Assembly (NCBI GenBank): GCA_004321885.1 | Contig: SCQK01000013.1 | Coordinates: 64,001-128,000, forward strand | Direction of reading: 5' to 3' | Length of the DNA: 64,000 nucleotides | Source of the DNA: Patescibacteria group bacterium | Lineage (GTDB): Bacteria > Patescibacteriota > Patescibacteriia > Magasanikbacterales > GWA2-37-8 | Shown: positions 4,490 through 63,292 of the stretch, piece by piece | Layout of the letters: each line of letters starts with the position of its first letter | How positions within the stretch are numbered: the stretch's first letter is position 1 | Made by a program: the position numbers and the translations under genes | Notes under the pieces: model-generated | Database searches by the model: none | The model's input: the letters and a program-made list of their open reading frames with translations, nothing else | What the model was told of the DNA's origin: nothing

Positions 4490-4612
4490 ACGGAAAACCA
4501 GTGTAAGAAAAACTCCAACCACTGCCGCGATATCCACGCCCGACGGCCCGTGCGCCGGACATTTGGCCGGAAAGCGCACGTCGGTCAAGCTACACCGCAA
4601 TGATTGGAATGT

Positions 4613-7202: not shown

Positions 7203-7219
7203 AGCGATAAAAAAATCGC

Positions 7220-7582
7220 CTACTTTACCAAGCGATTTTTGCCCAACAAATTTAAAATTTTAACAATCTCTTTCTTTAATTTTGGTATATCGTTCTCAAC
7301 GATTTTCCAAACCAGATTAATATCAACTCCAAAATATTCGTGAATGAGGACGTCCCGCGTACCGGCAATTTTTTTCCATTCTACCTGAGGATGCTTCTTT
7401 TTAAAACCAGCTGGCAAGCTTTTGCATGCTTCACCGATTATTTCCAAGCGGCGAATGATCGCGTCTTGAATTGTGGTTGAATCAAAAAAAAATTTTGGCG
7501 TTAATTTCGCCGCATTTTTTTCTATTTCTTCAATACTGGTTAAAATATATTCAAGAAAAAATTCAGGCTGTCTTTTTGCCAT
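7220..7582 (-). CDS. hepT: HepT-like (DUF86) nucleotidyltransferase substrate-binding toxin
   Basis: Rx4HxY motif in RDVLIHEY; size and 20-nt overlap with the upstream MntA-like gene are typical of HepT/MntA pairs. Confidence 0.7.
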   Translation of the reverse strand: MAKRQPEFFLEYILTSIEEIEKNAAKLTPKFFFDSTTIQDAIIRRLEIIGEACKSLPAGFKKKHPQVEWKKIAGTRDVLIHEYFGVDINLVWKIVENDIPKLKKEIVKILNLLGKNRLVK

Positions 7583-9908: not shown

Positions 9909-10229
9909 TTAATCAATTTTTCTCACAATTCCCTTCTCCGCGTCCACCTCCACCATATCGCCATTTTTAATCTTCCACAAAATTTCTTCCGAAAGACCGA
10001 CAATCGCCGGTTTGTTATTTTCGCGCGCCACAATAGCCGCGTGAGAAGTTACCCCGCCATGCACTGCCAAAATCGCCTTCACTTTTTTAGCCAGCGCCGC
10101 GTTTGGTTTGACTTGATTCAATAACACAATATTCTCTTCCGTGCAATGAGCAAATTGGTCAGTATGATTAATAATACAAACCAGCCCGCTCGCCTTGCCG
10201 GGACAAGCAGAAATTCCTTTGAATTGCAT
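9909..10229 (-). CDS. Stand-alone PEP-utilizing enzyme mobile (phosphohistidine swivel) domain protein
   Basis: HGGVTSHAAIVARENNKPAIVGL ... GDMVEVDAEKGIVRKI; 106 aa, only the PF00391-type swivel domain. Confidence 0.8.
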   Translation of the reverse strand: MQFKGISACPGKASGLVCIINHTDQFAHCTEENIVLLNQVKPNAALAKKVKAILAVHGGVTSHAAIVARENNKPAIVGLSEEILWKIKNGDMVEVDAEKGIVRKID

Positions 10230-10275
10230 AAATTATAAATAATGGCTTTGTTCTGCCATTATTTTACTCTTACTC

Positions 10276-10304
10276 TTGACAAAAGTCAAAAAATGTGCTA
10301 TATT
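10276..10304 (+). promoter_or_regulatory. Sigma70-type promoter TTGACA-N17-TATATT upstream of the high-GC histidine-phosphatase gene
   Basis: ttgaca (10276-10281), 17-nt spacer, tatatt (10299-10304). About 190-nt AT-rich leader, then RBS AGGAGAG and ATG at 10493. Confidence 0.55.
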
Positions 10305-10492
10305 GTTTTGTTGTGGTTTATTGGAAAATTGCGCTTTATTGCGCTATTTTCCGGCTATAACGTGAGTGTGTTGTTTTTTGAAAATTTGAGGTTTCTTTGG
10401 CCAGAAGTTGAATGCGTAATGCGAATATCTTTTGTTCGTAATGCGCAGTCAACTTCCACGCCCCACCGATGGGGCACACCAAGGAGAGGAAG

Positions 10493-11140
10493 ATGAAGAC
10501 CACGGTGCTGTTCACGAGGCACGAGGACCACAAAGACCAGGTCCTCCTGCCGGACGCGGTCGAGAGAGCGCGCATGCGCGGTCTGCGCCTGCGTGAGAAG
10601 GACTACAAGATCGACCGGGTCAAGGGCTCGCCCCTGCCCCGCGCCGATGCCACCGCCACCGAGATGATGACCGGCTACGGCCAGACCACGGACATCGAGC
10701 GCGAGGCGCGCCTCGGCGACTTCAAATCCGATCCAAGGACGCCGAAGGAGGCGGTGAAGGAGCTCAAGGCGAACGCGGTGGCCAAGCACGGGGATGACTC
10801 CGACTCCAACTTGGCCAAGGAGCTCATCAACACCCCCGCCCTGCACGACCTCCTCTTCGCCCGCGCGAAGGAAGGCGCCGAGGCCCTGCTGGAGATGGCC
10901 GCCGCCAACCCGGGCAAGACCATCCTGGCCGTGAGCCACGGCGTGGCCCGCATGGAGATCGTCCTGCGCTACCTGCGGGGCGTCCGCGACACCGCGCTCC
11001 TGGACATCGTCCCGGAGCTCATCGACCGCGGCGAGGTCATCAAGCTGACCTTCGAGGTCTCGGAAGAGTGGGACGACCTCGCCGAGACGCACCCGGCGCG
11101 GGCCGAGTTCGTCTCGGCCGAGCCCCTCCCGCTCCTCTAA
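10493..11140 (+). CDS. Histidine phosphatase superfamily (phosphoglycerate-mutase-like) protein encoded in a high-GC islet
   Basis: LFTRHEDH (RHG-type motif) near the N-terminus and ILAVSHGVARMEIVL (second catalytic His). RBS ccAAGGAGAGgaagATG. Local GC about 65% against about 40% background; the minus-strand 290-aa ORF is an antisense artefact. Confidence 0.65.
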   Translation: MKTTVLFTRHEDHKDQVLLPDAVERARMRGLRLREKDYKIDRVKGSPLPRADATATEMMTGYGQTTDIEREARLGDFKSDPRTPKEAVKELKANAVAKHGDDSDSNLAKELINTPALHDLLFARAKEGAEALLEMAAANPGKTILAVSHGVARMEIVLRYLRGVRDTALLDIVPELIDRGEVIKLTFEVSEEWDDLAETHPARAEFVSAEPLPLL

Positions 11141-11262
11141 CCCCCCATCTCGCCCGCGTTCCGCGGGCAACTCCAAACACAACTCACTGACACGGCGGTA
11201 CGCATCGCGCGACCGCCCAACTCTCAATGCTTTTCAACGAAAAACATTGAGCGTTACAAAAA

Positions 11263-11293
11263 ATCCTTCGCGTTTACGAAGGATTTTTTGTTT
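11263..11293 (+). terminator. Rho-independent terminator after the high-GC gene: ATCCTTCGCGTTTACGAAGGAT plus T-run
   Basis: Perfect stem TCCTTCG/CGAAGGA followed by TTTTTTGTTTCT. Confidence 0.7.
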
Positions 11294-11319
11294 CTCAATT
11301 TTAATACCAGCGCGCTATT

Positions 11320-19004: not shown

Positions 19005-20186
19005 TCAAGCAATCACTCCCCCGCCCAAACATTCACCTTTAAGATAAAATACCGCGAACTGACCCGGGGTGACGGCGCGTTGGGGGTGAGTGAAAGTAAC
19101 TAAAGGGAGGGAAACAGTGCATCTCTGCAAAGGTTGACGGTGACGCAGGCGCACCTGGCATTTTAGCGGGAAATTGGGTGTGTTTCCACTTATCCAATTT
19201 ACGTCTTTGACCCTTGCTTCCATACTGTACAGCATATCGCTTTTCTCGTCGCCGACAATCAGTTCGTTCTTTTTTATATTCTTACCGACAACAAAGAGAG
19301 GCAACGCGCTGGATTCCCCCGTACTTAGTCGGGGGAATGACAAACTGATACGTTGGCCGATGGTGTAAAACGCCAGGCCATCGTGCTGGCCCACGACTTT
19401 ACCCCTCTCTCGCCACCGCCGCGAGGCGGGGCCCCGCCGTGGCGGTGGCTCTCCCCTTGTAAAGGGGAGAGAGAGCACTATGTTCCCGGGTTTGAATTTT
19501 ATCTTTTTCATCAAAAATTCTTTCATCGGCACTTCGCCGATGAAACAAATGCCCATGCTTTCTTCTTTTTCCGCCGTGGGCAAGCCGAATTTTTTTGCCA
19601 GGGCGCGCACCTGTGGTTTGGCATACTCACCGATGGGAAACAAAACGTGGCGCAGTTGTGCTTGAGATAATTGATTCAAAAAATATGTTTGGTCTTTATT
19701 GAGATCTTTTGACTGCAAGAGGTGCAGAACCCCACCCCCCTTTCGTTCCCCCTTTATTAAGGGAGGAAGAAACGCGTAGTGTCCAGTCGCTAATTTATCA
19801 AACCCTAACGCACGGGCTTTATCCAGCCAGGCGCCAAACTTGATGAATTTATTGCACAAAACATCCGGATTGGGCGTGCGGCCGGCCTTGTACTCGCTAT
19901 ACATGTAATCCAAAACATCGCGCTTGTATTTGCGCGTAAAATCCAGCTTCAAAAGTTTAATGCCCAGTTTGGCGGCCACGCGCAAGGCGTCGCGATAATC
20001 GCCGGTCCAACAGCGCGATCCCACCCCCCCTTCGCCCCCCCCTCTGGCATGAGGGGATATTTTCTCATCATAGTTCACCATGAACGCGCCGCTTACGTTA
20101 TATCCTTGCTTAACCAAAAGAGCGGCGGCAACGGACGAATCCACGCCGCCGGACATGGCGACTAAAATTTTTTGCTTTTTTTTCAT
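19005..20186 (-). CDS. mnmA: tRNA-specific 2-thiouridylase MnmA, carrying four in-frame palindromic-element inserts
   Basis: ILVAMSGGVDSSVAAALLVKQGYNV (PP-loop), GRTPNPDVLCN, NKDQTYFL, GLPTAEKEESMGICFIG. Non-homologous inserts ISPHARGGGEGGVGSR, PPLIKGERKGGGV, LPFTRGEPPPRRGPASRRWRERGKVVG and SLSFPRLSTGESSA map onto elements at 20022-20057, 19736-19776, 19395-19475 and 19311-19341. Confidence 0.85.
   Translation of the reverse strand: MKKKQKILVAMSGGVDSSVAAALLVKQGYNVSGAFMVNYDEKISPHARGGGEGGVGSRCWTGDYRDALRVAAKLGIKLLKLDFTRKYKRDVLDYMYSEYKAGRTPNPDVLCNKFIKFGAWLDKARALGFDKLATGHYAFLPPLIKGERKGGGVLHLLQSKDLNKDQTYFLNQLSQAQLRHVLFPIGEYAKPQVRALAKKFGLPTAEKEESMGICFIGEVPMKEFLMKKIKFKPGNIVLSLPFTRGEPPPRRGPASRRWRERGKVVGQHDGLAFYTIGQRISLSFPRLSTGESSALPLFVVGKNIKKNELIVGDEKSDMLYSMEARVKDVNWISGNTPNFPLKCQVRLRHRQPLQRCTVSLPLVTFTHPQRAVTPGQFAVFYLKGECLGGGVIA
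19311..19341. repeat. Palindromic element, family A (reverse orientation), in frame in mnmA
   Basis: ggattcccccgtacttagtcgggggaatgac is the reverse complement of the alaS copy. Confidence 0.7.
19395..19475. repeat. Compound palindromic element, family D type (…CTCTCCCCTTGTAAAGGGGAGAGAG), in frame in mnmA
   Basis: cccctctctcgccaccgccgcgaggcggggccccgccgtggcggtggctctccccttgtaaaggggagagagag; nested inverted repeats. Confidence 0.6.
19736..19776. repeat. Palindromic element, family D type (CCCCCTTTATTAAGGGAGG), in frame in mnmA
   Basis: ccacccccctttcgttccccctttattaagggaggaag. Confidence 0.55.
20022..20057. repeat. Poly-C/poly-G palindromic element in frame in mnmA
   Basis: cccaccccccccttcgccccccccctctggcatgagggg. 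Confidence 0.5.
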
Positions 20187-20253: not shown

Positions 20254-20565
20254 TTACCTATCGCGCCTGGCCCGCAGACATTCTCTGCAGTAAACCGGCT
20301 TGTCGCCGGTGGGCTGGAAGGGCAACTCGGTGATCTTGCCTCCGCACTGGGCGCAGGTCAAGTCCACCTGGTACATCTGGCGCGGAGCGCCAAACGAGCG
20401 TCCGCCGCCGCTCGGGCGGGTCTGGCGGTACGCGCGATTGCATTCATTGCAATACACGGGTCTGTCGCCGGACGGCTGGAAGGGCAGCTGTGAAATATGG
20501 GTCCCGCATTTGCCGCAGGAAAGGTCCACATCGTACATCTGCCTAGTGCTGTTGTCAAAAGCCAT
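20254..20565 (-). CDS. Small tandem zinc-ribbon protein (two CxxC-x17-CxxC repeats) in a high-GC islet
   Basis: QMYDVDLSCGKCGTHISQLPFQPSGDRPVYCNECNR and QMYQVDLTCAQCGGKITELPFQPTGDKPVYCRECLR form an internal duplication. Local GC far above background. Confidence 0.55.
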   Translation of the reverse strand: MAFDNSTRQMYDVDLSCGKCGTHISQLPFQPSGDRPVYCNECNRAYRQTRPSGGGRSFGAPRQMYQVDLTCAQCGGKITELPFQPTGDKPVYCRECLRARRDR

Positions 20566-44933: not shown

Positions 44934-45644
44934 ATGAAGATCGTCATTGTAATTCCCACATACAACGAAAGGAAGAACATCTCCAAACTAACCGAGAAAA
45001 TTTTTGCTTTGCGAATTGACGGGCTGGAAATGATCGTAGTGGACGACGGCTCGCCCGACGGAACCGGCGACAAGGTAAAAAAATTGGGCGAACGATTTCC
45101 GGTGACCCTGCTGGCGCGCGAAAAAAAACGCGGACTCGGTTCGGCTTACCTCGCCGGATTCAAGAAAGCCCTGGAAATGGGGGCTGATTTTATTTTTGAA
45201 ATGGACGCGGATTTGTCGCACGACCCCGACGACGTGCCAAGATTACTGGAGCCGTGCCTGGACGGCGCCGATTTGGCCATCGGCTCGCGCCGGGTGGCCG
45301 GCGGAAAGATTATCGGATGGGGCTGGGCGCGCAAATTCATGAGCGCCGGAGCCATGCGGCTGTCGCGCCTGATACTTCAATTAAAAAACAAAGACGTTAC
45401 CTCCGGCTTCAGATGTTGGCGCCGCGAAGCGCTTTTAAGAATTGACTTGGACAAAATCAAAAGCAACGGCTACGCTTTTCAGGAAGAAATACTCTGGCGC
45501 GCCCAGCAGGCGGGCCTGAAAATTGCCGAGGTACCGGTAATTTTTGTTGACCGCGAAGAAGGCAAATCCAAACTGGGCTGGAGAGAGGTATTGGAATTTT
45601 TTAAAGTAATGCTGTCATTGCGAGCGAAGCGAAGCAATCCCTAA
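44934..45644 (+). CDS. GT2 family glycosyltransferase (polyprenol-phosphate / dolichyl-phosphate mannosyltransferase-like)
   Basis: IVIPTYNERKNI, MIVVDDGSPDGT, FEMDADLSHDP (DxD). The last 9 codons and the stop come from the family C element at 45614-45692. Confidence 0.8.
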   Translation: MKIVIVIPTYNERKNISKLTEKIFALRIDGLEMIVVDDGSPDGTGDKVKKLGERFPVTLLAREKKRGLGSAYLAGFKKALEMGADFIFEMDADLSHDPDDVPRLLEPCLDGADLAIGSRRVAGGKIIGWGWARKFMSAGAMRLSRLILQLKNKDVTSGFRCWRREALLRIDLDKIKSNGYAFQEEILWRAQQAGLKIAEVPVIFVDREEGKSKLGWREVLEFFKVMLSLRAKRSNP

Positions 45645-45692
45645 CACAAATGATTGGGATTGCTTCGGCGCTATGCGCCGCCTCGCAATGAC
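45614..45692. repeat. Palindromic element, family C (GTCATTGCGAGCGAAGCGAAGCAATCCC…GGGATTGCTTCGGCG…CGCCTCGCAATGAC), between and overlapping the 3' ends of the GT2 and dus genes
   Basis: 79-bp nested palindrome with perfect outer arms GTCATTGCGAG/CTCGCAATGAC. Related copies at 45860-45939, 51238-51287 and 53855-53936. Confidence 0.7.
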
Positions 45693-46648
45693 AATAACAA
45701 CTCGTCAAAGGTTTTCACCCTCATTAATTTCATTTTTAATTCCTTCACTCCGGGAACGCCTTTGAAATAATAGGCGAGGTGTTTGCGAAAAGTTACCATA
45801 CTTCCTTCGCCGTAGCGCTCTAAATGCAGTTGCGCATGGCGGAGAATGACGTTTAAAATGTCATCGCGAGGAGACTGCAGGCCGACGAAGCAATCCCCTG
45901 CTTTATCAGATGGGGTTGCTTCGCTACGCTCGCAATGACAACGGAAAATCCACGGGTTGCCAAGCGCCCCGCGGCCTATCATCACGCCGTCCGCGCCAGT
46001 AATTTCCAAACACCGGCGGATGTCTTCGGACGAATTTATATCACCATTGGCCAGCGCCGGAATCTTTAACAACTTTTTCACGCGGCCAATCATTTCCCAG
46101 TTCGCTTTGCCGCTGTAGCCCTGCGTCTTGGTGCGGCCGTGAATCGTGAGTAAATCAGCGCCGGCCGCTTCCAATTTAGGCGCGAACTCCAAAATTTCTT
46201 CCTCTCTCCCCCACCCCAGCCGCGTCTTCACGGAAATCGGCGCGCCCAAATCCGCTTTTTTTAATTCTGCCACGATTTTTACCGCTCGCTCGTGGTCTTT
46301 CATCAAAGCCGCGCCCGAATTGACTTTGCCGGTTAATTTCGGCACCGGACAGCCCATATTAATGTCAATCCCGTCGGGTTTAAATTTTTCAACTAAAATC
46401 TCCGCGGCCTGACGCACTTGTTTGGGCTCGGCGCCGAACAATTGCAAAACAATCGGCCTTTCAATCGCGTCAAACTCGCACATTTTCAAGGTCTTGGCGT
46501 TGCCGCGGCAAATCGCCTCGGCGCTCACCATTTCCCGAAAAATCACGAAATCCGGGCCTGAAACCTCGCGGCAAACGCGACAAAACGGCCCGTCGGTCAT
46601 ATCGGCCATGGGCGCGAGCGCGACAATAGATCGTTCATCCATCCACAT
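45671..46648 (-). CDS. dus: tRNA-dihydrouridine synthase (Dus family) with an in-frame family C insert
   Basis: LAPMADMTDGPFCRV, QLFGAEPKQ, DINMGCP, TIHGRTK, GVMIGRGALGNPWIF; insert RCHCERSEATPSDKAGDCFVGLQSPRDD from the element at 45860-45939. Start at ATG 46646-46648; the upstream track extension is a high-GC antisense artefact. Confidence 0.8.
   Translation of the reverse strand: MWMDERSIVALAPMADMTDGPFCRVCREVSGPDFVIFREMVSAEAICRGNAKTLKMCEFDAIERPIVLQLFGAEPKQVRQAAEILVEKFKPDGIDINMGCPVPKLTGKVNSGAALMKDHERAVKIVAELKKADLGAPISVKTRLGWGREEEILEFAPKLEAAGADLLTIHGRTKTQGYSGKANWEMIGRVKKLLKIPALANGDINSSEDIRRCLEITGADGVMIGRGALGNPWIFRCHCERSEATPSDKAGDCFVGLQSPRDDILNVILRHAQLHLERYGEGSMVTFRKHLAYYFKGVPGVKELKMKLMRVKTFDELLLSLRGGA
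45860..45939. repeat. Palindromic element, family C, in frame in dus
   Basis: gtcatcgcgaggagactgcaggccgacgaagcaatcccctgctttatcagatggggttgcttcgctacgctcgcaatgac. Confidence 0.7.
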
Positions 46649-46650
46649 AG

Positions 46651-46688
46651 TAAAAATTAAGGGCCTCCGCGAAGACGCGAGGAGGCCC
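46651..46688 (-). terminator. Terminator hairpin GGGCCTCCGCGAAGACGCGAGGAGGCCC plus T-run, downstream of the high-GC islet gene and 3 nt from the dus start codon
   Basis: Perfect 8-bp GC stem. The minus-strand continuation is TTAATTTTTAC. Confidence 0.6.
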
Positions 46689-46709
46689 ATCTTGCGTCGA
46701 CGCGCCTCC

Positions 46710-47312
46710 TCATCGCGCCGACGAGAACTGATAAACCAAACCCGGATTCTGATACTTCCCCGACGGGTCGCGGTAGCCGAGCTCGCTCCGGCCAGCCTTG
46801 GCGAGCGTCTCGGCAAAGAGATCGACGACAACCTCCTCGCCGCCCTCACCGGCAACCACCACCCAGGTGTAGCCAAATCCGAGGCCCGGCAGCATCTTGC
46901 CGCACGCCCTGGCCTGCAACCCCGCCTCCATCAGCAAGACAAACAGATAGGCGTGATAGTACCGGCAGCACGCTATGGCATGGCTGAGCGCGAATGACAG
47001 TTTGGCCTGCTCCGGCGAGGGCGAGAACACGAATCTGTGATACGTCTGGCGCGCATCCTCGTCCAGCTTCGTGTCGTTAGCCAGAACCACCGCGTTATGC
47101 GGCAACGCGGCGAGCACGAGGGTCTTTACCGCCGCAAGTCGCGCGCCGATGCCCTGCGGAGAGCTGGCTTGTTCCCGCGCCAGCCGCAGATGACATCCTA
47201 TGAAGCGGTACTCGTCATCCATCTGCACGTCGAAGATGTTCTCTCCCACCCACTGTCGCCTCGCCTCAACGACCTGGGGCTTCCCGTTGTCTGCCTGCCC
47301 GTTGTCTGACAT
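46710..47312 (-). CDS. Hypothetical 200-aa protein encoded in a high-GC islet
   Basis: RBS aacAGGAGAGAGAGaacATG on the minus strand; GC about 65%; no recognisable family (MSDNGQADNGKPQVVEARRQWVGENIFDVQMDDEYRF...). Confidence 0.5.
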   Translation of the reverse strand: MSDNGQADNGKPQVVEARRQWVGENIFDVQMDDEYRFIGCHLRLAREQASSPQGIGARLAAVKTLVLAALPHNAVVLANDTKLDEDARQTYHRFVFSPSPEQAKLSFALSHAIACCRYYHAYLFVLLMEAGLQARACGKMLPGLGFGYTWVVVAGEGGEEVVVDLFAETLAKAGRSELGYRDPSGKYQNPGLVYQFSSAR

Positions 47313-51230: not shown

Positions 51231-53333
51231 TTATGTATGGGATTGCTTCCCGCCAGAGGCGGGCAGGCGCTCTTCGCTCGCAATGACATTTTTTTTATGC
51301 CCCAAAAACATCCAATTGCCATACTCATTGAACCAGCGGAAAACAATGCGGATATTGATGCGGGTAACGGTAATGGCCGTAAACATGGAGACCAACGTGC
51401 CGATGGCCAACGTGACGGCAAAGCCCTGCACAAACCCGGTGCCAAACCATATAAGGAATCCGCAACTGATAAGGGTGGTGATATTGCTGTCGCGAATGGA
51501 CGGCCAGGCGCGCGCGAACGACTCCTCGGCCGCCGACAGCAAACTGCGGCCATTGCGTAATTCTTCTTTCATGCGCTCAAACACCAGCACATTGGCGTCT
51601 ACGGCCATACCGATAGACAAAATAAAGCCGGCAATGCCCGACAAGGTTAAAGTTACTCCGATAATCTTAAAGATGGCCAAACTTAAAAGGGCGTAGACGA
51701 GCAGAGAAACATTGGCCAACAAGCCGGGAAAGCGATAATAGCCAATCATGAAAAGCAAAACTAAAATCAAACCAACAATGCCGGCGAAAAAACTTTTACG
51801 CAGATACTCGGAACCCAAAGTGGCGTCCACTTTCTGCTGGCTGATGAGGTCTACGGCCACGGGCAAAGCGCCGGCGTTGAGGCGCTGGGACAAAAGCCGC
51901 GCTTCGCCGAGCGTGAAACTGCCCGAGATGACGGCCGAGCCGCTGGTGATGGCTTCGTTCACGCGCGGAATGCTAATGGGCTCACCGTCCAAAAATATGG
52001 CCACGTTCTTGCCCACATTGCGCGTGGTGATATCGCCGAACAATTTTGTGCCTTCTTCGTTGAATTGCAGATTGACCTGCACTTGTCCGGACTGATTATC
52101 CTGGGTTACCTCGGCGCGCTTGAGCTGCTTGCCCGACAAGCCCGAGCTTTTCCATTCCTCGGCCGGCGGCACGACATCGGAAGCCTGTTTAGTCTTCACG
52201 TACACGCGGGCCACCTCATATTCCCTGGACGGCTTTTCATCTTTTTTGTAAATAATGTGAAAACCGAATTTTGTTTCCACCGCATTGGACACAGCGCCCT
52301 TGGGCATCGCGCCCGCCGCCTCTTCAAACTCCGGCACCATTTGGCCCTTCTTAAACCAGCCCAGCTCTTCGCCGCGCACTTCCAATTTTTTATCCGGAGA
52401 ATATTGCTGTACCAACTGGGCAAAATTGGCGGGCGACGCCTGGGCTTTTATTTCACCGGCTCTTTGGCGGGCCTGGTCTTTGTTCAATTTGCTTTCACAC
52501 CCTTCGGCGCCGGCATAACAAACCAACAAGTGCGACGCGTTTATCATTTTTTCGCCGTCGCGGCCGGAGAGCCGTTTTACCACGTTCAAGCCGTCAAAAC
52601 TTTTCACCAGGGTTTTGCCCGCCTGGCCGTCTTTGGCTTTCTCGGCCCAAGCAAAAATTTCCGGATAAATTTCTTTGGTAATAAATCCCAGATTGCCGCC
52701 CTTGTCTTTGCTGGCCTGGTCTTCGGAATATTGGGCCGCGATTTTGCCGAAATCGGCCCCGGGTTTTAGGGCCGCGGTTAGAGCTGTTTTGGCTTTTTTA
52801 TCGGCCGCGCTGTTAAAAACGTCCAGGTCTTTTTTTTCTTGGGGTGTCAAATCGCGGGCCGGGTCGTGATTTTCTTCCTTAAATTCCAGTATCGGAGTTT
52901 CGCCAATCATTTTGATGGCCTGATTGACATCGGTAACGCCGGGCAATTCCACAATCACGCGATAATCGCCGCCGACCTTGGTGGTTTGCACCAATGGCTC
53001 GGCCACGCCCAGGCCCCCGCGCACGCGCCGCTCTATCACGTCGCGCACGCCTTCCACGGCGTCGCCGCGGTCGCCTTCGGGAATGGTTTCTGTTTTGGCC
53101 TGATAAACCAAATGCGCGCCGCCCTGCAAATCCAGGCCCAGATTAAAGCCCTTATCCGGCAAGCGGGGCAAACCGATGTTGGCCGCGTTGTTGAGCCAGT
53201 CTATGCCGCGGTTGGCGAACGCCGGCAAAACAATAAGCAGGGTGGCAATGGCCAAAGCGACCACGCCGGCCGCGTGCCATTTTAATTTTTTCGCCGACGA
53301 AACCTTGTTGGAAATTTTTACTGCCATAAACAC
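51231..53333 (-). CDS. secD: Protein translocase subunit SecD with an inserted parvulin-type (PpiC-like) peptidyl-prolyl isomerase domain; C-terminal tail and stop supplied by a family C element
   Basis: SecD N-terminus and DLQGGAHLVYQ, C-terminal TM bundle. Middle segment ...INASHLLVCYAGAEG...GEELGWFKKGQMVPEFEEAAGAMPKGAVSNAVETKFGFHIIYK resembles the parvulin rotamase fold. Last residues …ASEERLPASGGKQSHT* are read from 51238-51287. Confidence 0.8.
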   Translation of the reverse strand: MFMAVKISNKVSSAKKLKWHAAGVVALAIATLLIVLPAFANRGIDWLNNAANIGLPRLPDKGFNLGLDLQGGAHLVYQAKTETIPEGDRGDAVEGVRDVIERRVRGGLGVAEPLVQTTKVGGDYRVIVELPGVTDVNQAIKMIGETPILEFKEENHDPARDLTPQEKKDLDVFNSAADKKAKTALTAALKPGADFGKIAAQYSEDQASKDKGGNLGFITKEIYPEIFAWAEKAKDGQAGKTLVKSFDGLNVVKRLSGRDGEKMINASHLLVCYAGAEGCESKLNKDQARQRAGEIKAQASPANFAQLVQQYSPDKKLEVRGEELGWFKKGQMVPEFEEAAGAMPKGAVSNAVETKFGFHIIYKKDEKPSREYEVARVYVKTKQASDVVPPAEEWKSSGLSGKQLKRAEVTQDNQSGQVQVNLQFNEEGTKLFGDITTRNVGKNVAIFLDGEPISIPRVNEAITSGSAVISGSFTLGEARLLSQRLNAGALPVAVDLISQQKVDATLGSEYLRKSFFAGIVGLILVLLFMIGYYRFPGLLANVSLLVYALLSLAIFKIIGVTLTLSGIAGFILSIGMAVDANVLVFERMKEELRNGRSLLSAAEESFARAWPSIRDSNITTLISCGFLIWFGTGFVQGFAVTLAIGTLVSMFTAITVTRINIRIVFRWFNEYGNWMFLGHKKNVIASEERLPASGGKQSHT
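51238..51287. repeat. Palindromic element, family C (half-copy: GGGATTGCTTCCCGCCAGAGGCGGGCAGGCGCTCTTCGCTCGCAATGAC)
   Basis: Shares GATTGCTTCG and CGCTCGCAATGAC with the 45614 and 53855 copies. Confidence 0.6.
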
Positions 53334-53342
53334 AATTATTAT

Positions 53343-53367
53343 GTCATTCCGGGCTTGACCCGGAATC
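53343..53367. repeat. Palindromic element, family A variant (GTCATTCCGGGCTTGACCCGGAATC), downstream of tRNA-Val
   Basis: Read directly. Confidence 0.6.
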
Positions 53368-53387
53368 TATTTCCGTGTGGACGGTGC

Positions 53388-53460
53388 AGGACTCGGACCT
53401 GCGGCCCTTGCGATGTAAACGCAATGCTCTACCAACTGAGCTAACCGTCCGTCCGCATCT
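53388..53460 (-). tRNA. tRNA-Val (anticodon TAC)
   Basis: RC: GGACGGT-TA-GCTC-AGTTGGTA-GAGC-A-TTGCG-TTTACAT-CGCAA-GGGCC-GCAGG-TCCGAGT-CCTGC-ACCGTCC-A. Confidence 0.8.
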
Positions 53461-53505
53461 CGGCTATGATTTTACCCCTTTTTGCCTTTTTTGGCAAGAA
53501 CCATT

Positions 53506-53530
53506 GTCATTCCTGCGCAAGTAGGAATCC
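53506..53530. repeat. Palindromic element, family A variant (GTCATTCCTGCGCAAGTAGGAATCC), upstream of tRNA-Val
   Basis: Read directly. Confidence 0.6.
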
Positions 53531-53537
53531 ACAATCA

Positions 53538-53840
53538 TTACGATTCGTCCAAAATTATCTTTTCTTTGAATCCTCCCCTGTCTTCGGCCTTGGTGGCGCG
53601 TATTTTTTCCAGCTCAACGGCGTCATAACCCTTGAAATCGCGCATGGAATTGAGAACTTCGTAAAGGTCGCCCAAATCATGTGGCGATTCCGAGGAAAAA
53701 AACTCTCCCAGCTCCTCCAGCAGTTTTTCCTTCAACTTTTTCCAGTATTCCTCACTGCCGGCGATATGGTACACCGCCTGTCCGCCTTTGGCTTTGATGA
53801 TTTCGGGAATCTTGTCCCGCACGAGTTTATTGTATTTCAT
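53538..53840 (-). CDS. MazG-like / HisE-like nucleoside-triphosphate pyrophosphohydrolase domain protein
   Basis: MKYNKLVRDKIPEII...EEYWKKLKEKLLEELGEF...DLGDLYEVL pattern of MazG-like all-alpha NTP-PPases (PF12643-like). Confidence 0.55.
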   Translation of the reverse strand: MKYNKLVRDKIPEIIKAKGGQAVYHIAGSEEYWKKLKEKLLEELGEFFSSESPHDLGDLYEVLNSMRDFKGYDAVELEKIRATKAEDRGGFKEKIILDES

Positions 53841-53854
53841 ATAATCTAATCGCT

Positions 53855-53936
53855 GTCATTGCGAGCGAGCCACAAGCGAGCGCGGCAATCCCTTCCGTGT
53901 TTGGGATTGCTTCGCCCCTTCGGGGCTCGCAATGAC
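53855..53936. repeat. Palindromic element, family C (GTCATTGCGAGCGAGCCACAAGCGAGCGCGGCAATCCC…GGGATTGCTTCGCCCCTTCGGGGCTCGCAATGAC)
   Basis: 82-bp nested palindrome between the MazG-like gene and the NUDIX fragment. Confidence 0.7.
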
Positions 53937-53967
53937 ATTTAAGTTTCAAAATAATTTTTACCTGTTT

Positions 53968-54195
53968 TTATCGCTTCCAACATGAAACGAACTTCAAATT
54001 TCCTATTTCAACGCCCAGTTCCTCCGTCGCTTCTCGTTTCACCGTTTCCATGGGGCTTTCTCCAAACTCCACGTGTCCGCCGATGGAACCATAACAACCG
54101 TCCGCGTGCGCGCCCTTGCGTTTGGCGAGCAAGGTCTTGCCATCTTTTATTATCACCGCCCCGGCGCCCACTTTGATTATTTTATCTTCCGACAT
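53968..54195 (-). pseudogene. NUDIX hydrolase, truncated to 76 aa just after the Nudix box
   Basis: MSEDKIIKVGAGAVIIKDGKTLLAKRKGAHADGCYGSIGGHVEFGESPMETVKREATEELGVEIGNLKF... (Nudix box GGHVEFGESPMETVKREATEELGV). The ORF stops about 55 aa short of a normal NUDIX fold, directly abutting the family C element. Confidence 0.55.
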
Positions 54196-54261
54196 AATTG
54201 AAACTTCGAACTTCTGATTATTTGACTTAAAAATATGATTATGGTAGGGTGTTTTTGCCGT

Positions 54262-54512
54262 CAGAGAGTGCTCGAAGGCCCTACTCCGGAAGACGTCCCG
54301 GAGCCAGGAGGAGAAGCCGTCCCACCATTCCATGCCGCCGGCCACAGTCCGGCCGCGAGGTGCGCGCGCTCCGCTTCCAAAGGGGCATCTCGAAAACTGT
54401 GCCGGGGTGGTTTGGCGTCTTTGCGCCAGATTGCACCCCACATGGACAGCGTCCTCCTACGGGGAGGACTATGGTTGCTTAGCGCCATCAACCCTCTCTG
54501 ACGGCGCTTTTT
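54262..54512 (+). ncRNA. Candidate structured non-coding RNA of unknown class: about 250 nt, about 65% GC, closed by 12-bp inverted repeat GCCGUCAGAGAG…CUCUCUGACGGC, ending in a T9 run
   Basis: GC spike with no coherent ORF (all six frames give short Arg-rich ORFs). Multiple local hairpins (CUCCGGAAGACGUCCCGGAG; GGCGUCUUUGCGCC; CCUCCUACGGGGAGG). GCGCCAUCAACCCUCUCUGACGGCGC plus U9 on the + strand resembles an intrinsic terminator. The CAGUCCGG…GUGCCGGGG segment is reminiscent of SRP-RNA/RNase-P P4-like strands but no family signature is complete. Confidence 0.35.
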
Positions 54513-54514
54513 TT

Positions 54515-54733
54515 TTATTTGTATTTCTTCAACAACTCATCTAATTTTTTCATGATTGGCGCGCGCCAGTCGTCAATCATTTGCGTCCTGATAAATTTTA
54601 CCATTTTTTTGTCTTCCGCCGTCATCTTTTTACTCTCAAGTTCGTAAATTTTTCCCAAAATAAAATAATCTCTATCTTCCTTCAAAACATAACGTTTTTT
54701 GTCAATCGGACGAATTTTTGGTAATTTGTTCAT
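54515..54733 (-). CDS. Small hypothetical protein (72 aa)
   Basis: MNKLPKIRPIDKKRYVLKEDRDYFILGKIYELESKKMTAEDKKMVKFIRTQMIDDWRAPIMKKLDELLKKYK. The track's upstream extension is read through family B elements and is probably not coding. Confidence 0.4.
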   Translation of the reverse strand: MNKLPKIRPIDKKRYVLKEDRDYFILGKIYELESKKMTAEDKKMVKFIRTQMIDDWRAPIMKKLDELLKKYK

Positions 54734-54760
54734 ACTACACAATTCGTTGTGGCAACAATC

Positions 54761-54786
54761 GTCATCCTGAACTTGTTTCAGGATCC
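54761..54786. repeat. Palindromic element, family B (GTCATCCTGAACTTGTTTCAGGATCC)
   Basis: Read directly; 30 nt from the inverted-orientation copy at 54820. Confidence 0.7.
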
Positions 54787-54819
54787 CCACTGTCCAATTC
54801 GCCGACTCGCTCGATCGGA

Positions 54820-54844
54820 GATGCCGAAACAAGTTCGGCATGAC
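54820..54844. repeat. Palindromic element, family B, inverted orientation (GATGCCGAAACAAGTTCGGCATGAC); left flank of the GIY-YIG gene
   Basis: Loop ACAAG is the RC of family B CTTGT; stem ATGCCGAA/TTCGGCAT. Confidence 0.65.
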
Positions 54845-54865
54845 AGTGACGCGGCTGGAAACTTA

Positions 54866-55159
54866 TCACTCCCATTCGTCGCTCAAGTCTTTCAAAGTGG
54901 GATTAAGTCCTTTTACTAAATTTATTTTCCACTGACGATGCCAATTTTTGATTTGTTTCTCTCTGTTAATTGCGTCACGTGGATCCAAAAAAACTTCGTA
55001 ATAAACTAACTTTTTCAGATTATACTGTTTTGTAAATCCCTCATTGATTCCATTTTTATGTTCTTCAAGCCGACGTTCTAGATTGTTCGTTATACCTACA
55101 TATAAAACCGTGTTGATGATGTTTGTTAAAATATACACATAAAATGTTTTCCCCTCCAT
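54866..55159 (-). CDS. Small GIY-YIG nuclease (COG2827/YhbQ-Slx1-like), second copy, flanked by family B elements
   Basis: MEGKTFYVYILTNIINTVLYVGITNNLERRLEEHKNG...; GIY-YIG (URI) core; 97 aa. Confidence 0.7.
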   Translation of the reverse strand: MEGKTFYVYILTNIINTVLYVGITNNLERRLEEHKNGINEGFTKQYNLKKLVYYEVFLDPRDAINREKQIKNWHRQWKINLVKGLNPTLKDLSDEWE

Positions 55160-55175
55160 ACGATTTGCGATTGGA

Positions 55176-55200
55176 GATGCTGAAATAAATTCAGCATGAC
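55176..55200. repeat. Palindromic element, family B, inverted orientation (GATGCTGAAATAAATTCAGCATGAC); right flank of the GIY-YIG gene
   Basis: Same orientation as the 54820 copy, so the two form direct repeats around the nuclease ORF. Confidence 0.65.
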
Positions 55201-55201
55201 A

Positions 55202-58045
55202 TTACTGGCCGTGACAGCGCTTGTATTTCTTCCCGCTGCCGCAAGGGCAAGGGTCGTTGCGGCCCACCACTTTGCCGGCCTCGTCGCGCACTTTTTTCCC
55301 GGCCGGCGCGGCGCCGTTGTCGCTGGTCTTGCTGGCCCCGCTAAACATCAGATTCCCCGCCTGCATCACCGACGGCGCTATCTGTATTCCCAAATTTACT
55401 TTATAAACCAAATACACCACTTCTTTTTGAATGTAATTAAGCAGTTCGTTGAACATCCGGTAGGTTTCTTTTTTGTATTCCACCAGCGGGTCGTGCTGGG
55501 CATAGCCGCGCAGGCCAATGCCGGTGCGCAAATAATCCACGGCCACCAAATGTTCCACCCACAGATTGTCTATGGCGCGCAGCAATACTTGTTTTTCTAT
55601 CTCGGCCATCATCTCGGGCGGGGCTTGTTTGACCAGCAGTTCCTCGTATTTATACTTGGCCGTTTCTATCAAAAATTCTATGAGTTGCGTCCTAATCGTA
55701 ACATCATCAACCCGCCCGCCCACCGGCGGGGCGCCAAATTCTCCGATTTTTTTCTTTTCATCGTCAGACAGCGGGAAAATGGTCGTCATTGTTTCGGCAA
55801 TTTCTTTCACATTCCAGTCACTGCGGTCTTCGGCGTTGGTATGGAACGAAACCACCTCTTCAATTTCCTGTTCTATCATTTCCAAAATCATGACGCGCAA
55901 ATTTTTTACCCCCTCTTTCGTCTCCCCCTTATCAAGGGGGAGAGAAGCGGTGGACGTCTCCGCCATATCACGAGAGAGAGAAGCGGTTGATTCAAAAGCG
56001 CGCAATACCTCGCGCCGTTTGCCGTAAATCACCTCGCGGTGCTTGTTGAGCACGTCATCGTACTCCAGCAAATGTTTGCGCGTGTCAAAATGCAAACCCT
56101 CCACTTTGCGCTGGGCGCTTTCTATAATGCGCGTAATCATCCCCTGCTCTATGGGCATGTCATCTGGCACTTTAAGGGCGTTCATTACCCCGCGTATTCT
56201 GTCGCCGGCAAAAATACGCATCAGGTCGTCTTCGGTGGAAAGGAAAAATTGCGACTGCCCCGGGTCGCCCTGGCGCCCGCTGCGGCCGCGCAACTGGTTG
56301 TCTATACGCCGGCTCTCGTGGCGCTCGGTGCCCAGCACAAACAAACCGCCGGCCGCGCGCACGCGCCCGGCTTCTTCGGGTACAGGCGGATTACCGCCCA
56401 AAATTATATCCACTCCCCTGCCGGCCATGTTGGTGGCCAGGGTCACGCGCCCGGGCTGGCCGGCCTGCGCGATTATCTCGCCCTCGCGCTCATGATTCTT
56501 GGCGTTTAGAATTTCATGCGCTATTCCCTCTCTTTGCAAATGCAAACTCAAGGCCTCGTTTTTCTCCACTGATACCGTGCCTATCAAAACCGGCTGGCCC
56601 TTGGCCTGTAATTCTTTTACCATCTGGGCGATGGCCTTGTGCTTGGCCTCTTCGGTTTTATAAATCCTGTCCGGAAAATTCGTGCGCTGGCTGGGTTTGT
56701 TCGGCGGAATTACCACCACTTCCAGTTTGTAAATTTTGCCGAACTCTTCGGCCTCGGTGACGGCCGTGCCGGTCATGCCCGACAGCTTTTCGTACAAACG
56801 GAAATAATTTTGAAAAGTAACCGTGGCCATGGTCTGACTTTCATGTTGAATGACCACGTTTTCTTTGGCTTCTATGGCCTGATGCAAGCCCTCGCTATAG
56901 CGGCGGCCCGGCATTTTGCGGCCGGTAAATTCGTCCACTATGAGCACCTCGCTGTTTTCCACGATATAGTCGCGGTCGCGCAAGAAAAGCGTCTGCGCCC
57001 GCAAAGCCTGCTCCACGTGGTGCACGGTACGCACCCCGCCCTCGGCGTAAATATTGTCCACGCCCAGCCATTTTTCCATTTTAGCGATGCCGGCTTCGGA
57101 AAGCGTGGCCGAGCGCATTTTTTCGTCTATGTTAAAGTCCTCGTTTTCTTTCAAGCGGCGCACCAGCTCGGCGAATTTGTAATACATGTCGGCCGCTTTT
57201 TCGGCCGGCGCGGAAATAATCAAGGGGGTGCGGGCTTCGTCTATTAAAATGGAGTCAACCTCGTCCACGATGGCGTAAAAAAACGGCCGCTGTACCATCT
57301 CGCTCAAATTTTGCACCATGTTGTCGCGCAAATAATCAAAGCCATATTCGTTGTTGGTGCCATAAGTGACGTCGCAGCCGTAGGCCTCTTGGCGCGAGCA
57401 GGGTTCCAAAAATTCCGTTTCCACTTTGTACATTCCTTTGGCGTCGCGTTCTTTGTCTGCTTCACTGCCCTCCTGTAACCCCACCCCCTGCCACCACACC
57501 AAAGATTTTGGTGTGGTGGCCTGCCCATCCCCTAATAGGGGAGGGGTTTTTGCGTAGCGAAAAGAAACACCAAGCTGTTGAATCACGCCCACGCTCAATC
57601 CCAAAGCATCATATATCTGCCCCATCCACACAGCGTCGCGTTTGGCCAAATAATCATTCACAGTCACCACGTGCACTCCCCTGCCGGCCAAGCCGTTTAG
57701 ATACACAGGCAAGGTAGCCACCAGGGTTTTGCCCTCGCCAGTGCCCATCTCAGCGATAGCGCCGCTATGCAAAGCCATGCCGCCCTTTAGCTGGACGTCA
57801 AAATGGCGCATACCAGTCAAACGTTTTGATGTTTCGCGCACCACGGCAAACGCCTCGGGCAAAATATCGTCCAGGGTGGCGCCGTCGGCCAAACGCTTTT
57901 TGAACTCATCGGTTTTGCCCCGCAACTGTTCCAAACTCAAAGACGCCATCCCGCTTTCCAGGGCATTGATTCTTTCCACGAGCGGCTTGTATCCGGCAAT
58001 CACTTTCGCATTCGGGTCGCCAAAAATTCTGCTAAAAAAAGACAT
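55202..58045 (-). CDS. secA: Preprotein translocase ATPase SecA with in-frame palindromic inserts
   Basis: MSFFSRIFGDPNAKVIAGYKPLVERINALE, GEGKTLVATLPVYLNGLAGRGVHVVTVNDYLAKRD, HQAIEAKE, TNMAGRGVDIILGG, C-terminal zinc motif CPCGSGKKYKRCHG; inserts PPLLGDGQATTPKSLVWWQGVG (57481-57546) and ASLPLDKGETKE (55921-55944). ATG at 58043-58045. Confidence 0.9.
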   Translation of the reverse strand: MSFFSRIFGDPNAKVIAGYKPLVERINALESGMASLSLEQLRGKTDEFKKRLADGATLDDILPEAFAVVRETSKRLTGMRHFDVQLKGGMALHSGAIAEMGTGEGKTLVATLPVYLNGLAGRGVHVVTVNDYLAKRDAVWMGQIYDALGLSVGVIQQLGVSFRYAKTPPLLGDGQATTPKSLVWWQGVGLQEGSEADKERDAKGMYKVETEFLEPCSRQEAYGCDVTYGTNNEYGFDYLRDNMVQNLSEMVQRPFFYAIVDEVDSILIDEARTPLIISAPAEKAADMYYKFAELVRRLKENEDFNIDEKMRSATLSEAGIAKMEKWLGVDNIYAEGGVRTVHHVEQALRAQTLFLRDRDYIVENSEVLIVDEFTGRKMPGRRYSEGLHQAIEAKENVVIQHESQTMATVTFQNYFRLYEKLSGMTGTAVTEAEEFGKIYKLEVVVIPPNKPSQRTNFPDRIYKTEEAKHKAIAQMVKELQAKGQPVLIGTVSVEKNEALSLHLQREGIAHEILNAKNHEREGEIIAQAGQPGRVTLATNMAGRGVDIILGGNPPVPEEAGRVRAAGGLFVLGTERHESRRIDNQLRGRSGRQGDPGQSQFFLSTEDDLMRIFAGDRIRGVMNALKVPDDMPIEQGMITRIIESAQRKVEGLHFDTRKHLLEYDDVLNKHREVIYGKRREVLRAFESTASLSRDMAETSTASLPLDKGETKEGVKNLRVMILEMIEQEIEEVVSFHTNAEDRSDWNVKEIAETMTTIFPLSDDEKKKIGEFGAPPVGGRVDDVTIRTQLIEFLIETAKYKYEELLVKQAPPEMMAEIEKQVLLRAIDNLWVEHLVAVDYLRTGIGLRGYAQHDPLVEYKKETYRMFNELLNYIQKEVVYLVYKVNLGIQIAPSVMQAGNLMFSGASKTSDNGAAPAGKKVRDEAGKVVGRNDPCPCGSGKKYKRCHGQ
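57481..57546. repeat. Two adjacent palindromes in frame in secA: GCCACCACACCAAAGATTTTGGTGTGGTGGC and CCATCCCCTAATAGGGGAGGGG
   Basis: Read directly; 11-bp and 7-bp perfect stems. Confidence 0.6.
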
Positions 58046-62051: not shown

Positions 62052-62323
62052 TTTTGGCGCGAGCCGATGAGCGGATTTGAACCGCTGACCACCTCCTTCG
62101 CTTATACTTTATATTGCTATAAAGACTAGACTGTATCTTTGGCTTATCCTTTACCGGACTTAGCCACCCTTGTCAGTCGTTCGCCCGCGATTAGCGGGAC
62201 GGTCTTGTCCCAATTTATTTAGGGATATTAACCGTTATTCGGGATTCACCACGATGTTTCCATCGTGATGGGCGAGGCTTGCGGCTCACCATGGAGGTGC
62301 TCTACCAACTGAGCTACATCGGC
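62052..62323 (-). tRNA. tRNA-Thr (anticodon GGT) interrupted by a 199-nt group I intron in the anticodon loop
   Basis: 5' exon GCCGATG-TA-GCTC-AGTTGGTA-GAGC-A-CCTCC-ATGGT (62288-62323). 3' exon AA-GGAGG-TGGTC-AGCGG-TTCAAAT-CCGCT-CATCGGC-T (62052-62088). Joined anticodon loop AUGGUAA gives GGU. Position equals E. coli thrT in thrU-tyrU-glyT-thrT. Confidence 0.6.
62089..62287 (-). ncRNA. Group I intron (199 nt) in tRNA-Thr(GGU), inserted after U36
   Basis: 5' exon ends in U that can pair with a G in the intron (P1); the intron ends in G. GNRA-capped hairpins (GAGCC-GCAA-GCCUC; CACGAUGG-AAA-CAUCGUG); core-like elements AAUUGGGACAAG (P-like), UAAUCGCGGGCG (Q-like), ACGACUGACA (R-like), AAGAUACAGUCUAGUC (S-like, compare AAGAUAUAGUCC) in canonical order. 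Confidence 0.5.
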
Positions 62324-62328
62324 ATTTT

Positions 62329-62988
62329 CTAATTTTTTTTATTTTCCAAAATCCTCATTAATTCATCTCTCATTTTTTTATTATGGTAATAAACTGTTAA
62401 AACTCCATGTCTACTTTTTTCGCGATAAGTACCTTTTCTAACAGACATTGTTATCGTGCTTTTGTAAAATTGATTTTTATTTACCTTTATTTGCCCCTTC
62501 CAAAACCTTAGCGCTTCAGTCACTGAAATGTCATTGAATAACTGAAGGCTAAACTTAAGGTCTTTTCTTCTAATGGAAAAAAATTTAACTAAAAAGTCAA
62601 TAAATTTCTTGACCAATCTTGGGTCAGTATTTCCCAACCTAACTGTGCATTTATCCGCTTTTGTTCCCTCCCCCCAGTATAACCCAAGTCCAAAACCATA
62701 TAAAATTCCCTCTTTTAATGTATGTGGATACTTTATGACAAATGGATCACCGTTTGGGTTATTTTTTTTGTAAATAGCTTCACTGATAGATCTACACGTA
62801 ATCGAATATTTTTCCATCCAATAACGTATTTTATTTACTGAACATTCGAAAATATTGGCAATTTCTTGTGCCGACTTTCCCTGATTTTGATATAATTTTT
62901 GCAAAACACCTTTGCTTATCATATCACAAATTATATCATAGCCGACTGAATAGTACAAGTAACCCCAAGTAGATAATATGGTTGTCAA
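62329..62988 (-). CDS. HTH plus LAGLIDADG-like protein (possible free-standing homing endonuclease) lying between the two intron-containing tRNA genes, in the position of glyT
   Basis: N-terminal HTH (QGKSAQEIANIFECSVNKIRYWMEKY); central ILYGFGLGLYWGEGTK resembles a single LAGLIDADG motif (LxGFxDGDG); 219 aa. Confidence 0.4.
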   Translation of the reverse strand: MTTILSTWGYLYYSVGYDIICDMISKGVLQKLYQNQGKSAQEIANIFECSVNKIRYWMEKYSITCRSISEAIYKKNNPNGDPFVIKYPHTLKEGILYGFGLGLYWGEGTKADKCTVRLGNTDPRLVKKFIDFLVKFFSIRRKDLKFSLQLFNDISVTEALRFWKGQIKVNKNQFYKSTITMSVRKGTYREKSRHGVLTVYYHNKKMRDELMRILENKKN

Positions 62989-62997
62989 TGAACCTTG

Positions 62998-63292
62998 TGG
63001 GTGGAGTAGGATTCGAACCTACGAAGGCAGAGCCAGCAGATTTCATTTATCCAAAAGTTTCCTTCTAGCATGGACTATATCTTTATCCTATCCGCCAATC
63101 TGGCCGATAGGATACTCTGGTATCTAGTCTCTACGGCGCCCCCGACTTTGCCGGGGTTCCCACGGTATTAGCATGCCCGCCAGTTGGCGGATTTAGCTTT
63201 CACCGTTATCCCAGAGAGTTCATCCTAAAGTTACCTTTAGGAGCTGCGTTTCAACACAGTCTGCTCCAGTTGACCACTTTGGTATCCACCCA
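62998..63292 (-). tRNA. tRNA-Tyr (anticodon GTA) interrupted by a 213-nt group I intron in the anticodon loop
   Basis: 5' exon GGGTGGA-TA-CCAA-AGTGGTCAA-CTGG-A-GCAGA-CTGT (63257-63292), closely matching E. coli tRNA-Tyr (…CCAAAGGGAGCAGACUGUAAAUCUGC…). 3' exon AAA-TCTGC-TGGCTCTGCCTTC (long variable arm)-GTAGG-TTCGAAT-CCTAC-TCCACCC-A (62998-63043). Joined loop CUGUAAA. Confidence 0.65.
63044..63256 (-). ncRNA. Group I intron (213 nt) in tRNA-Tyr(GUA), inserted between anticodon positions 35 and 36
   Basis: Exon CUGU pairs with intron GCAG (U·G at the splice site). The intron ends …AAAUG. Contains CGUAGAGACUAGAUA (R element, AGAGACUA) and AAAGAUAUAGUCCAUG (exact S element AAGAUAUAGUCC), plus AAAUCCGCCAACUGGCGGGC (P/Q-like). 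Confidence 0.6.

Follow-up and report, generated by a model that had tools for sequence, protein, structure and literature searches.

The GC-rich block at positions 54257-54505 of the window (the whole 64,000-nt stretch of DNA analysed here) is real as a sequence feature and belongs to no described RNA family, and we tentatively read it as a candidate for a strain-specific (accessory) orphan small RNA gene on the plus strand, a reading to which we give somewhat less than an even chance. The 249-nt unit, hereafter the element, is delimited by a perfect 12-bp inverted repeat (GCCGTCAGAGAG at 54257-54268 and CTCTCTGACGGC at 54494-54505; 100% complementary) with ~225 nt between the arms. Its GC content is 64.7%, against 33-35% in the immediate flanks, and G and C are locally balanced within it, unlike in the flanks. 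Behind the right arm, after the dinucleotide GC, comes a T9 run at 54509-54517, one of only three T/A runs of at least 9 nt in the window.

An earlier note on this DNA had reported ~65% GC, perfect terminal inverted repeats and a following T9, and all three were recovered here, the repeat being 12 bp long and its left arm beginning 5 nt left of the start then given. The note had also argued from the setting of an AT-rich genome, and this argument fails: GC content over the whole window is 48.9%, only the immediate flanks are AT-rich, and the element is only the 7th-highest 200-nt GC peak. The 12-bp repeat alone is weak evidence, since a random 64 kb should yield about one perfect inverted repeat of this length within 300 nt, and 11 occur in the window, most of them terminators or members of repeat families. 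The features of the element and its surroundings are collected in Table 1.

Table 1. Features of the element and its immediate neighbourhood (window coordinates).
Feature	Position	Strand	Basis or remark
Palindromic repeat (GTCATTGCGAGC ... GCTCGCAATGAC)	53854-53937		At break point of NUDIX gene
Truncated NUDIX (MutT-like) gene fragment	53968-54195	-	Divergent from element; ATG 26 nt from -35 box
-35-like box TTGACT	54222-54227	+	Consensus motif match
Extended -10-like box TGG-TAGGGT, 17-nt spacer	54242-54250	+	Ends 7 nt before 5' arm
5' arm of terminal helix (GCCGUCAGAGAG)	54257-54268	+	100% complementarity; pair probability 0.98-1.0
Domain 1	54272-54393	+	MFE and centroid, helix list; one-sequence prediction
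Domain 1 closing stems	54272-75/54390-93 and 54278-82/54382-86	+	MFE and centroid
Domain 1 hairpin	54284-89/54298-303	+	MFE and centroid
Domain 1 long irregular arm	54307-54378	+	MFE and centroid
Domain 2, 21-bp hairpin (CUGUGCC-GGGGUG-GUUUGGCGU ...)	54397-54449	+	Predicted fold
Domain 3, 8-bp hairpin GUCCUCCU/GGGAGGAC	54451-54469	+	Predicted fold
Terminator-type hairpin AGCGCC-A-UCA ... UGA-C-GGCGCU, -12.4 kcal/mol	54481-54508	+	Predicted fold; abuts U9
3' arm of terminal helix (CUCUCUGACGGC)	54494-54505	+	Complementarity; pair probabilities
U9 tract	54509-54517	+	Last 3 nt overlap stop codon of convergent orf72
orf72, hypothetical protein TAN33046.1	54515-54733	-	Convergent with element

On the plus strand, the element is framed by promoter-like and terminator-like signals. 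The motif TTGACW-N16-18-TANNNT occurs 15 times in the window compared with 1.72 times expected from shuffles, and this roughly 9-fold enrichment indicates that most matches should be real promoters; that one of them ends just before the 5' arm argues for a small RNA gene. Its -10 hexamer TAGGGT keeps T1, A2 and T6 and is preceded by TGn, as in several other motif matches. At the other end, the terminator-type hairpin, which shares its 3' half with the 3' arm of the terminal helix, abuts one of the rare 9-nt T/A runs, which argues in the same direction. A stand-alone small RNA gene should have its own promoter reading into a non-coding segment, found here as a consensus match only, and an intrinsic terminator on the same strand, found here as the hairpin and U9. 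The reading is weakened because the -10 hexamer is weak and because an automated promoter/terminator scan with strict consensus called neither site of the element, the hairpin having been missed because of one A.C mismatch in its stem.

The plus strand folds better than its shuffles (z -3.7), with a minimum free energy (MFE) of -121.8 kcal/mol at the exact boundaries; one of the 119 native 250-nt windows of 60-70% GC is marginally lower (-122.5), so that the element stands at the stable extreme, as would be expected of a structured RNA gene. The terminal 12-bp helix is part of the MFE structure, its ensemble pair probabilities (0.98-1.0) are a further argument for the small RNA reading, and a fold constrained to lack it is ~16 kcal/mol worse. 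The predicted topology is a multi-branch junction of local hairpins and not a rod, in keeping with the earlier description of a hairpin-rich segment closed by a terminal helix. The stems are nearly all perfect, and the minus strand folds about as well (z -3.7; MFE -123.7 kcal/mol, which is roughly in the top tenth to fifth only among GC-matched native windows). Because both strands are equally stable and the stems near-perfect, a palindromic element acting at the DNA level would look alike, and this weakens the case for an RNA. Elsewhere in the window, the folds most stable for their GC content lie at 11051-11300 (-) (MFE -137.9 kcal/mol at 58% GC, z -5.96 against GC regression), 10226-10475 (+), 19301-19550 and 46651-46900 (-), and none of them has an Rfam match.

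If the element is a small RNA gene, transcription from a sigma-70-type promoter (TTGACT-N17-TGgTAGGGT) would begin near 54257, a position suggested by the promoter-type motif, and the promoter would fire divergently from the NUDIX fragment and convergently with SecA-GIY-YIG-orf72. The nascent RNA would fold into three or four GC-rich arms, and the local hairpin at 54481-54508 together with U9 would cause termination at about 54515. After release, the 3' arm may leave the local hairpin and pair with the 5' end, the whole fold being predicted to be ~16 kcal/mol more stable. The product would be a ~255-nt RNA with clamped ends around a multi-way junction, which is the layout of stable protein-binding or scaffold RNAs. 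We infer transcription, its start site, the hairpin-to-helix switch and any cellular role from the letters and the folds predicted from them.

The relatives of its SecA identify the window as part of a Candidatus Magasanikbacteria (CPR) MAG, the best SecA identity being 73-76%. In many relatives SecA is directly followed by SecDF, and the spacer between them ranges from 63 nt to >4 kb, so the 1.9 kb found here represents variable DNA. It contains a GIY-YIG gene, orf72, the element, the truncated NUDIX gene, a MazG-like gene and tRNA-Val. As all neighbouring genes lie on the minus strand, a plus-strand element would be an independent unit. The NUDIX fragment covers only positions 4-70 of the 134 in the Pfam NUDIX profile, and its similarity to a full-length homologue (locus L161) is lost after about residue 72. 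Decay of the locus, with the NUDIX gene truncated and palindromic repeats inserted, weakens the small RNA reading. An assembly chimera is unlikely, as the conserved SecA ... SecDF arrangement is intact on either side, in gene order as well as in orientation.

Several annotations and repeats in this part of the genome deserve mention in their own right. NCBI annotates a 'NUDIX hydrolase' of 125 aa (TAN33045.1; 53968-54345, minus strand) that extends the NUDIX fragment by 150 nt into the element; homology to NUDIX proteins does not begin until the ATG at 54195 and spans half a domain, and TAN33045.1 is probably an over-extended pseudogene call. The repeat at the break point of the NUDIX gene belongs to a ~75-nt palindromic family (GTCATTGCGAGC ... 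GGGATTGCTTCG ... GCTCGCAATGAC) found at 45613-45693, 45886-45939, 53854-53937 and 51276-51287 of the window, and a 12-mer of this family occurs 6 times where 0.32 occurrences are expected. A second repeat family, the hairpin CCTGAACTTGTTTCAGGA, is present at 8610, 30594, 31044, 44827 and 54766 (5 copies compared with 0.08 expected). Its copy at 54766 falls within the 5' part of 'orf108' in the open reading frame list, an ORF whose true start is M37, giving 72 aa as in the NCBI annotation.

Since the whole SecA ... SecDF gene string is co-directional, we also considered an RNA structure on the minus strand, either a 5' leader or riboswitch-like element for the NUDIX and MazG-like genes, or a processing or stability element after orf72. 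The minus strand is as stable as the plus strand, and the element sits 61 nt upstream of the NUDIX start (ATG at 54195). The gene downstream is a truncated fragment, however, full-length NUDIX homologues in other genomes have no such element or leader, the minus strand has neither an expression platform nor a U-tract, no match to a riboswitch family was obtained at E<=10, and it is the plus strand that carries the promoter and terminator signals. We therefore regard a minus-strand structure as very unlikely.

A small protein-coding gene is, in our view, highly improbable. The element contains open frames of 88, 77 and 76 aa, the longest of them on the plus strand at 54235-54501, and the plus strand holds 2 stops over its three frames where ~6 are expected. 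GC-rich ORFs with strong ribosome-binding sites do occur in the same spacer and on the same strand in five relatives (L020, L023, L050, L058 and L071); one weak match to a PHROG profile was obtained as well (phrog_23109, E = 0.0029, 18.4 bits), the sole one for the element. Against a coding role, no ribosome-binding site precedes any start codon of the element, and transcription is predicted to start downstream of the ATG at 54235. GC by codon phase is flat (0.61/0.61/0.71, compared with 0.58/0.37/0.65 in SecA), and the amino acid composition, with R, P, A, W and C abundant, matches that of GC-rich DNA read out of frame. No match to the element's frames was found in Pfam at E<=0.01 or in NCBIfam at E<=1; an exhaustive HMMER search of the 88-aa frame against 1.84 billion representative proteins gave zero matches, and none of the three other open frames has a protein homologue. 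When the minus-strand frame was searched as extra N-terminal sequence of the NUDIX ORF, the sole match was TAN33045.1 from this same genome. The earlier statement that there is no plausible ORF thus agrees with both codon phase and protein searches, and this non-coding character argues for the small RNA reading.

The same window also contains a GC-rich (about 66%) small gene at 20254-20565 (-), which encodes a 103-aa protein with two CxxC ... CxxC repeats, and a promoter TTGACA-N17-TATAAT lies at 20703-20675; GC-rich small units of this genome can therefore be coding.

The earlier note had proposed covariance-model searches against Rfam for RNase P, SRP, tmRNA and 6S, and these have now been run without a match of the element to any family. 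With Rfam 15 at gathering thresholds, the whole window yields five tRNAs only; at E<=1, no RNase P, SRP, tmRNA or 6S RNA is found in the whole window, and at E<=10 (roughly >=12 bits for RNase P) the region 54150-54620 gives no meaningful match. ARAGORN finds no tmRNA in the window. Motif searches for RNase P CR-I/CR-V, SRP domain IV, the tRNA-like T-arm and the T-box found all of them absent from the element. The absence of Rfam matches and signature motifs bears out the note's remark that no complete signature of a known family is present, and its term 'unclassified structured RNA candidate' is apt as a description of a non-coding, unusually stable segment framed by promoter-type and terminator-type signals. 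The likeness to RNase P or SRP that it saw in 'CAGUCCGG ... GUGCCGGGG' finds no support in Rfam at E<=10 or in the motif search.

The element is not a core housekeeping RNA. That it might still be a highly diverged RNase P RNA, SRP RNA, 6S RNA or tmRNA in reduced CPR form, as the note had allowed, is almost certainly wrong. Such RNAs also pair their 5' and 3' ends, and the short strings AGUCCGG and UCCGGAAG are present in the element. Diverged CPR RNase P RNAs that score under Rfam thresholds do exist, and some were recovered with the bit-score threshold lowered to 5 (PMC8172020). Here, however, in addition to the missing family matches, the CR-I/CR-V motifs show at least 5 mismatches in their 13-15 specified positions and SRP domain IV at least 6 of 17, and a 250-nt multi-branch fold is unlike P4-type or rod-type architectures. 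Moreover, a close relative (contig L165, described below) has no such element at the orthologous site, and nothing recognisable as the element occurs in ~80 Magasanikbacteria loci.

The individual families were rejected on the following grounds. Bacterial RNase P RNA (RF00010/RF00011) has no model match at E<=10 in the region or at E<=1 in the window; the P4 regions CR-I (GAGGAAAGUCCGGGC) and CR-V (ACAGAAnnCGGCUUA) have at least 5 mismatches on either strand, the strands of the element nearest to them are locked in strong local hairpins in the predicted fold, and presence is not conserved, the element being absent at the orthologous site in L165 and having no homologue in 169 loci. SRP RNA (RF00169/RF01854) likewise has no model match, the motif GUCCGGAAGGAAGCAGC shows at least 6 mismatches, and the UCCGGAAG string forms a 6-bp stem with an 8-nt loop and not a GGAA tetraloop. 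For tmRNA, ARAGORN and Rfam gave nothing and the T-arm motif is missing. For 6S RNA (RF00013) there is no match, and the fold is multi-branched instead of a rod with a large central bubble. A T-box was rejected as having no Rfam match and no motif in the element. A group I intron (RF00028) was rejected as well, since the region has no match at E<=10 and the element is intergenic. Overall, the element resembles stable RNAs with paired ends (RNase P, 6S, SRP, Y RNA) in that a terminal helix closes a compact GC-rich fold, and differs from them in having no family signature, Rfam score or conservation.

Two group I introns were detected elsewhere in the window, at 63051-63263 (-) (RF00028, 61.7 bits, above the gathering score yet missed in gathering mode) and at 62107-62454 (-) (RF00028, 26.9 bits, E = 0.008). 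Each of them splits a tRNA-like gene (GGGTGGATACC ... and GCCGATGTAGCTCAG ... CCTCCAT, followed by the intron), neither of which is called by ARAGORN, and between the two introns lies a LAGLIDADG-like ORF at about 62340-62920.

Searches for the element in related genomes covered 160 loci of GTDB genomes and JGI metagenomes, retrieved by means of SecA, and 169 loci (about 2 Mb) in all for a single-sequence covariance model of the element. Neither blastn, nhmmer and tblastx in the 160 loci nor the covariance model over the 169 loci identified a homologue, and phage and plasmid collections contain none; a 19-mer scan of viral contigs gave one chance match, in a coding region of a GC-rich phage. 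There are consequently no homologues with covarying pairs, and the small RNA reading is weakened because covariation and conservation lend it no support. In the SecA-SecDF spacer of one locus (L071, about 4577-4639), a run of N represents a scaffold gap or masked stretch.

The closest relative is the Logan contig L165, reached via a member of the 90% cluster of orf72, which shares 94.5% nucleotide identity with the window over the GIY-YIG gene and orf72, and 80% over the NUDIX gene. L165 lacks the element and at its site carries ~1 kb of AT-rich DNA in which two protein genes overlap. Two orf72 homologues with 61% identity also have no such element downstream. Since L165 has two genes at the site, we regard the element as strain-specific and as the product of replacement, not of clean insertion; most likely, it was gained with, or after, a rearrangement in which two genes were lost and the NUDIX gene was crippled. 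The possibility that it is a remnant of the L161 or L165 genes was rejected, as there is no similarity. The presence of two protein-coding genes at the site in L165 further weakens the small RNA reading.

These observations bear directly on the possibility that the element is inert foreign or remnant DNA, that is, a short GC-rich fragment captured in an illegitimate recombination that deleted two genes at a hypervariable locus, its signals and inverted repeat being fortuitous or leftovers and any transcript functionless. We consider this unlikely, although, with the mobile element discussed below, it is one of the two main rivals: the nearest relative has ~1 kb of AT-rich coding DNA in place of the element, the neighbouring NUDIX gene is truncated and diverging faster than the genes beside it (80 vs. 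94.5% nucleotide identity), the length of the spacer is highly variable among relatives, none of the collections searched contains a homologue, and chance alone would give about one 12-bp inverted repeat per window. Against inert DNA stand the plus-strand fold at the stable extreme of GC-matched native windows (z -3.7) and the coincidence of three features, with a promoter motif 7 nt before the helix, the helix itself, and the hairpin with U9 right after it. As no frame resembles any protein, there is also no recognisable gene fragment.

Strain-specific presence and absence, perfect terminal inverted repeats at both ends of a GC-rich block, and equally good folds on both strands would alternatively fit a MITE-like non-autonomous mobile element, an inserted 249-bp unit with 12-bp perfect terminal inverted repeats that may carry an outward-acting terminator, and the genome does contain other small palindromic repeat families. 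MITEs and small palindromic repeats share with the element the terminal inverted repeats, a length of ~250 bp, hairpins on both strands and an insertion-like distribution. Unlike MITEs, the element is single-copy in the 64-kb window and all loci, the arm 12-mer not recurring even with 2 mismatches; there is no clear target-site duplication (flanks TTTTT vs. GCTTTTT), and no transposase is nearby. L165 shows no empty site and has instead 1 kb of other genes, which indicates replacement and not simple insertion. On balance a mobile element appears quite unlikely.

Although no homologue of the element was found, other small RNA-like modules are present in the same slot in relatives. In the Magasanikbacteria loci L011 (11213-11412, minus strand) and L035 (11412-11610, minus strand), an unannotated, homologous RNA of ~190 nt, referred to here as 'm1', is found downstream of SecA. 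A TTGACA-type promoter and a terminator of its own accompany it, Rfam has no match to it, and of its 39 predicted pairs, 7 show compensatory double changes between L011 and L035. Like the element, m1 occupies the slot downstream of SecA on the strand opposite SecA, has a TTGACA-type promoter and an intrinsic terminator, is GC-rich for its genome, and matches nothing in Rfam; in L035 it is also divergent from a NUDIX gene, the geometry seen here. m1 differs from the element in its length of ~190 nt, in a fold of two hairpin domains that lacks a terminal 5'/3' helix, and in its conservation, which includes compensatory changes. The element was rejected as an m1 homologue, as the m1 covariance model (R2) reached at best 6.1 bits on 53300-55300, in a spurious alignment.

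Two further modules are orphans. In L011, 'm2' (10975-11132, minus strand) consists of a promoter, a GC-rich structure (z -5.5) and a terminator, and L083 contains a module of the same make-up at about 7190-7532 (-), 345 nt long and with 50% GC in a locus of 37% GC; Rfam has no match for either module, and the loci contain no homologue of them. The modules in L011, L035 and L083 show that, in this phylum, the slot downstream of SecA does harbour small structured RNA genes. Because these analogues share the slot, strand and geometry of the element, they argue for the small RNA reading and raise its prior, even though they do not supply homology. Of these leads, m1 of L011 and L035 is more tractable than the element.

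The small RNA gene proposed here has counterparts in other bacteria. Strain-specific small RNA genes encoded on islands have their own sigma-70 promoter and an intrinsic terminator and are conserved only in close strains. Similarly, the element is non-coding, lies between a promoter-type motif and a hairpin with U-tract, is situated in DNA that is variable and rearranged, and is present in one strain and absent from another. Compared with typical base-pairing small RNAs, it has a greater length, a higher GC content and more structure, and a 12-bp helix clamps its ends.

A more far-reaching version, to which we give only a slim chance, is that the element represents a new class of compact, end-clamped structured RNAs, of which it would be the first one sighted, spreading horizontally among CPR bacteria. 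If so, such RNA genes would use the SecA-SecDF spacer as a landing pad, something that the non-homologous modules of L011, L035 and L083 hint at, and the function could be new, for example as the RNA partner of a host or symbiont protein.

The element is a single-genome orphan, and its value is mainly that of a lead. To our knowledge, the non-coding RNA content of CPR/Patescibacteria is almost unknown. If transcribed, the element would join a very small number of regulatory or scaffold RNA candidates described for this group, and it would show that the set of such RNA genes changes from strain to strain at a defined hot spot beside secA.
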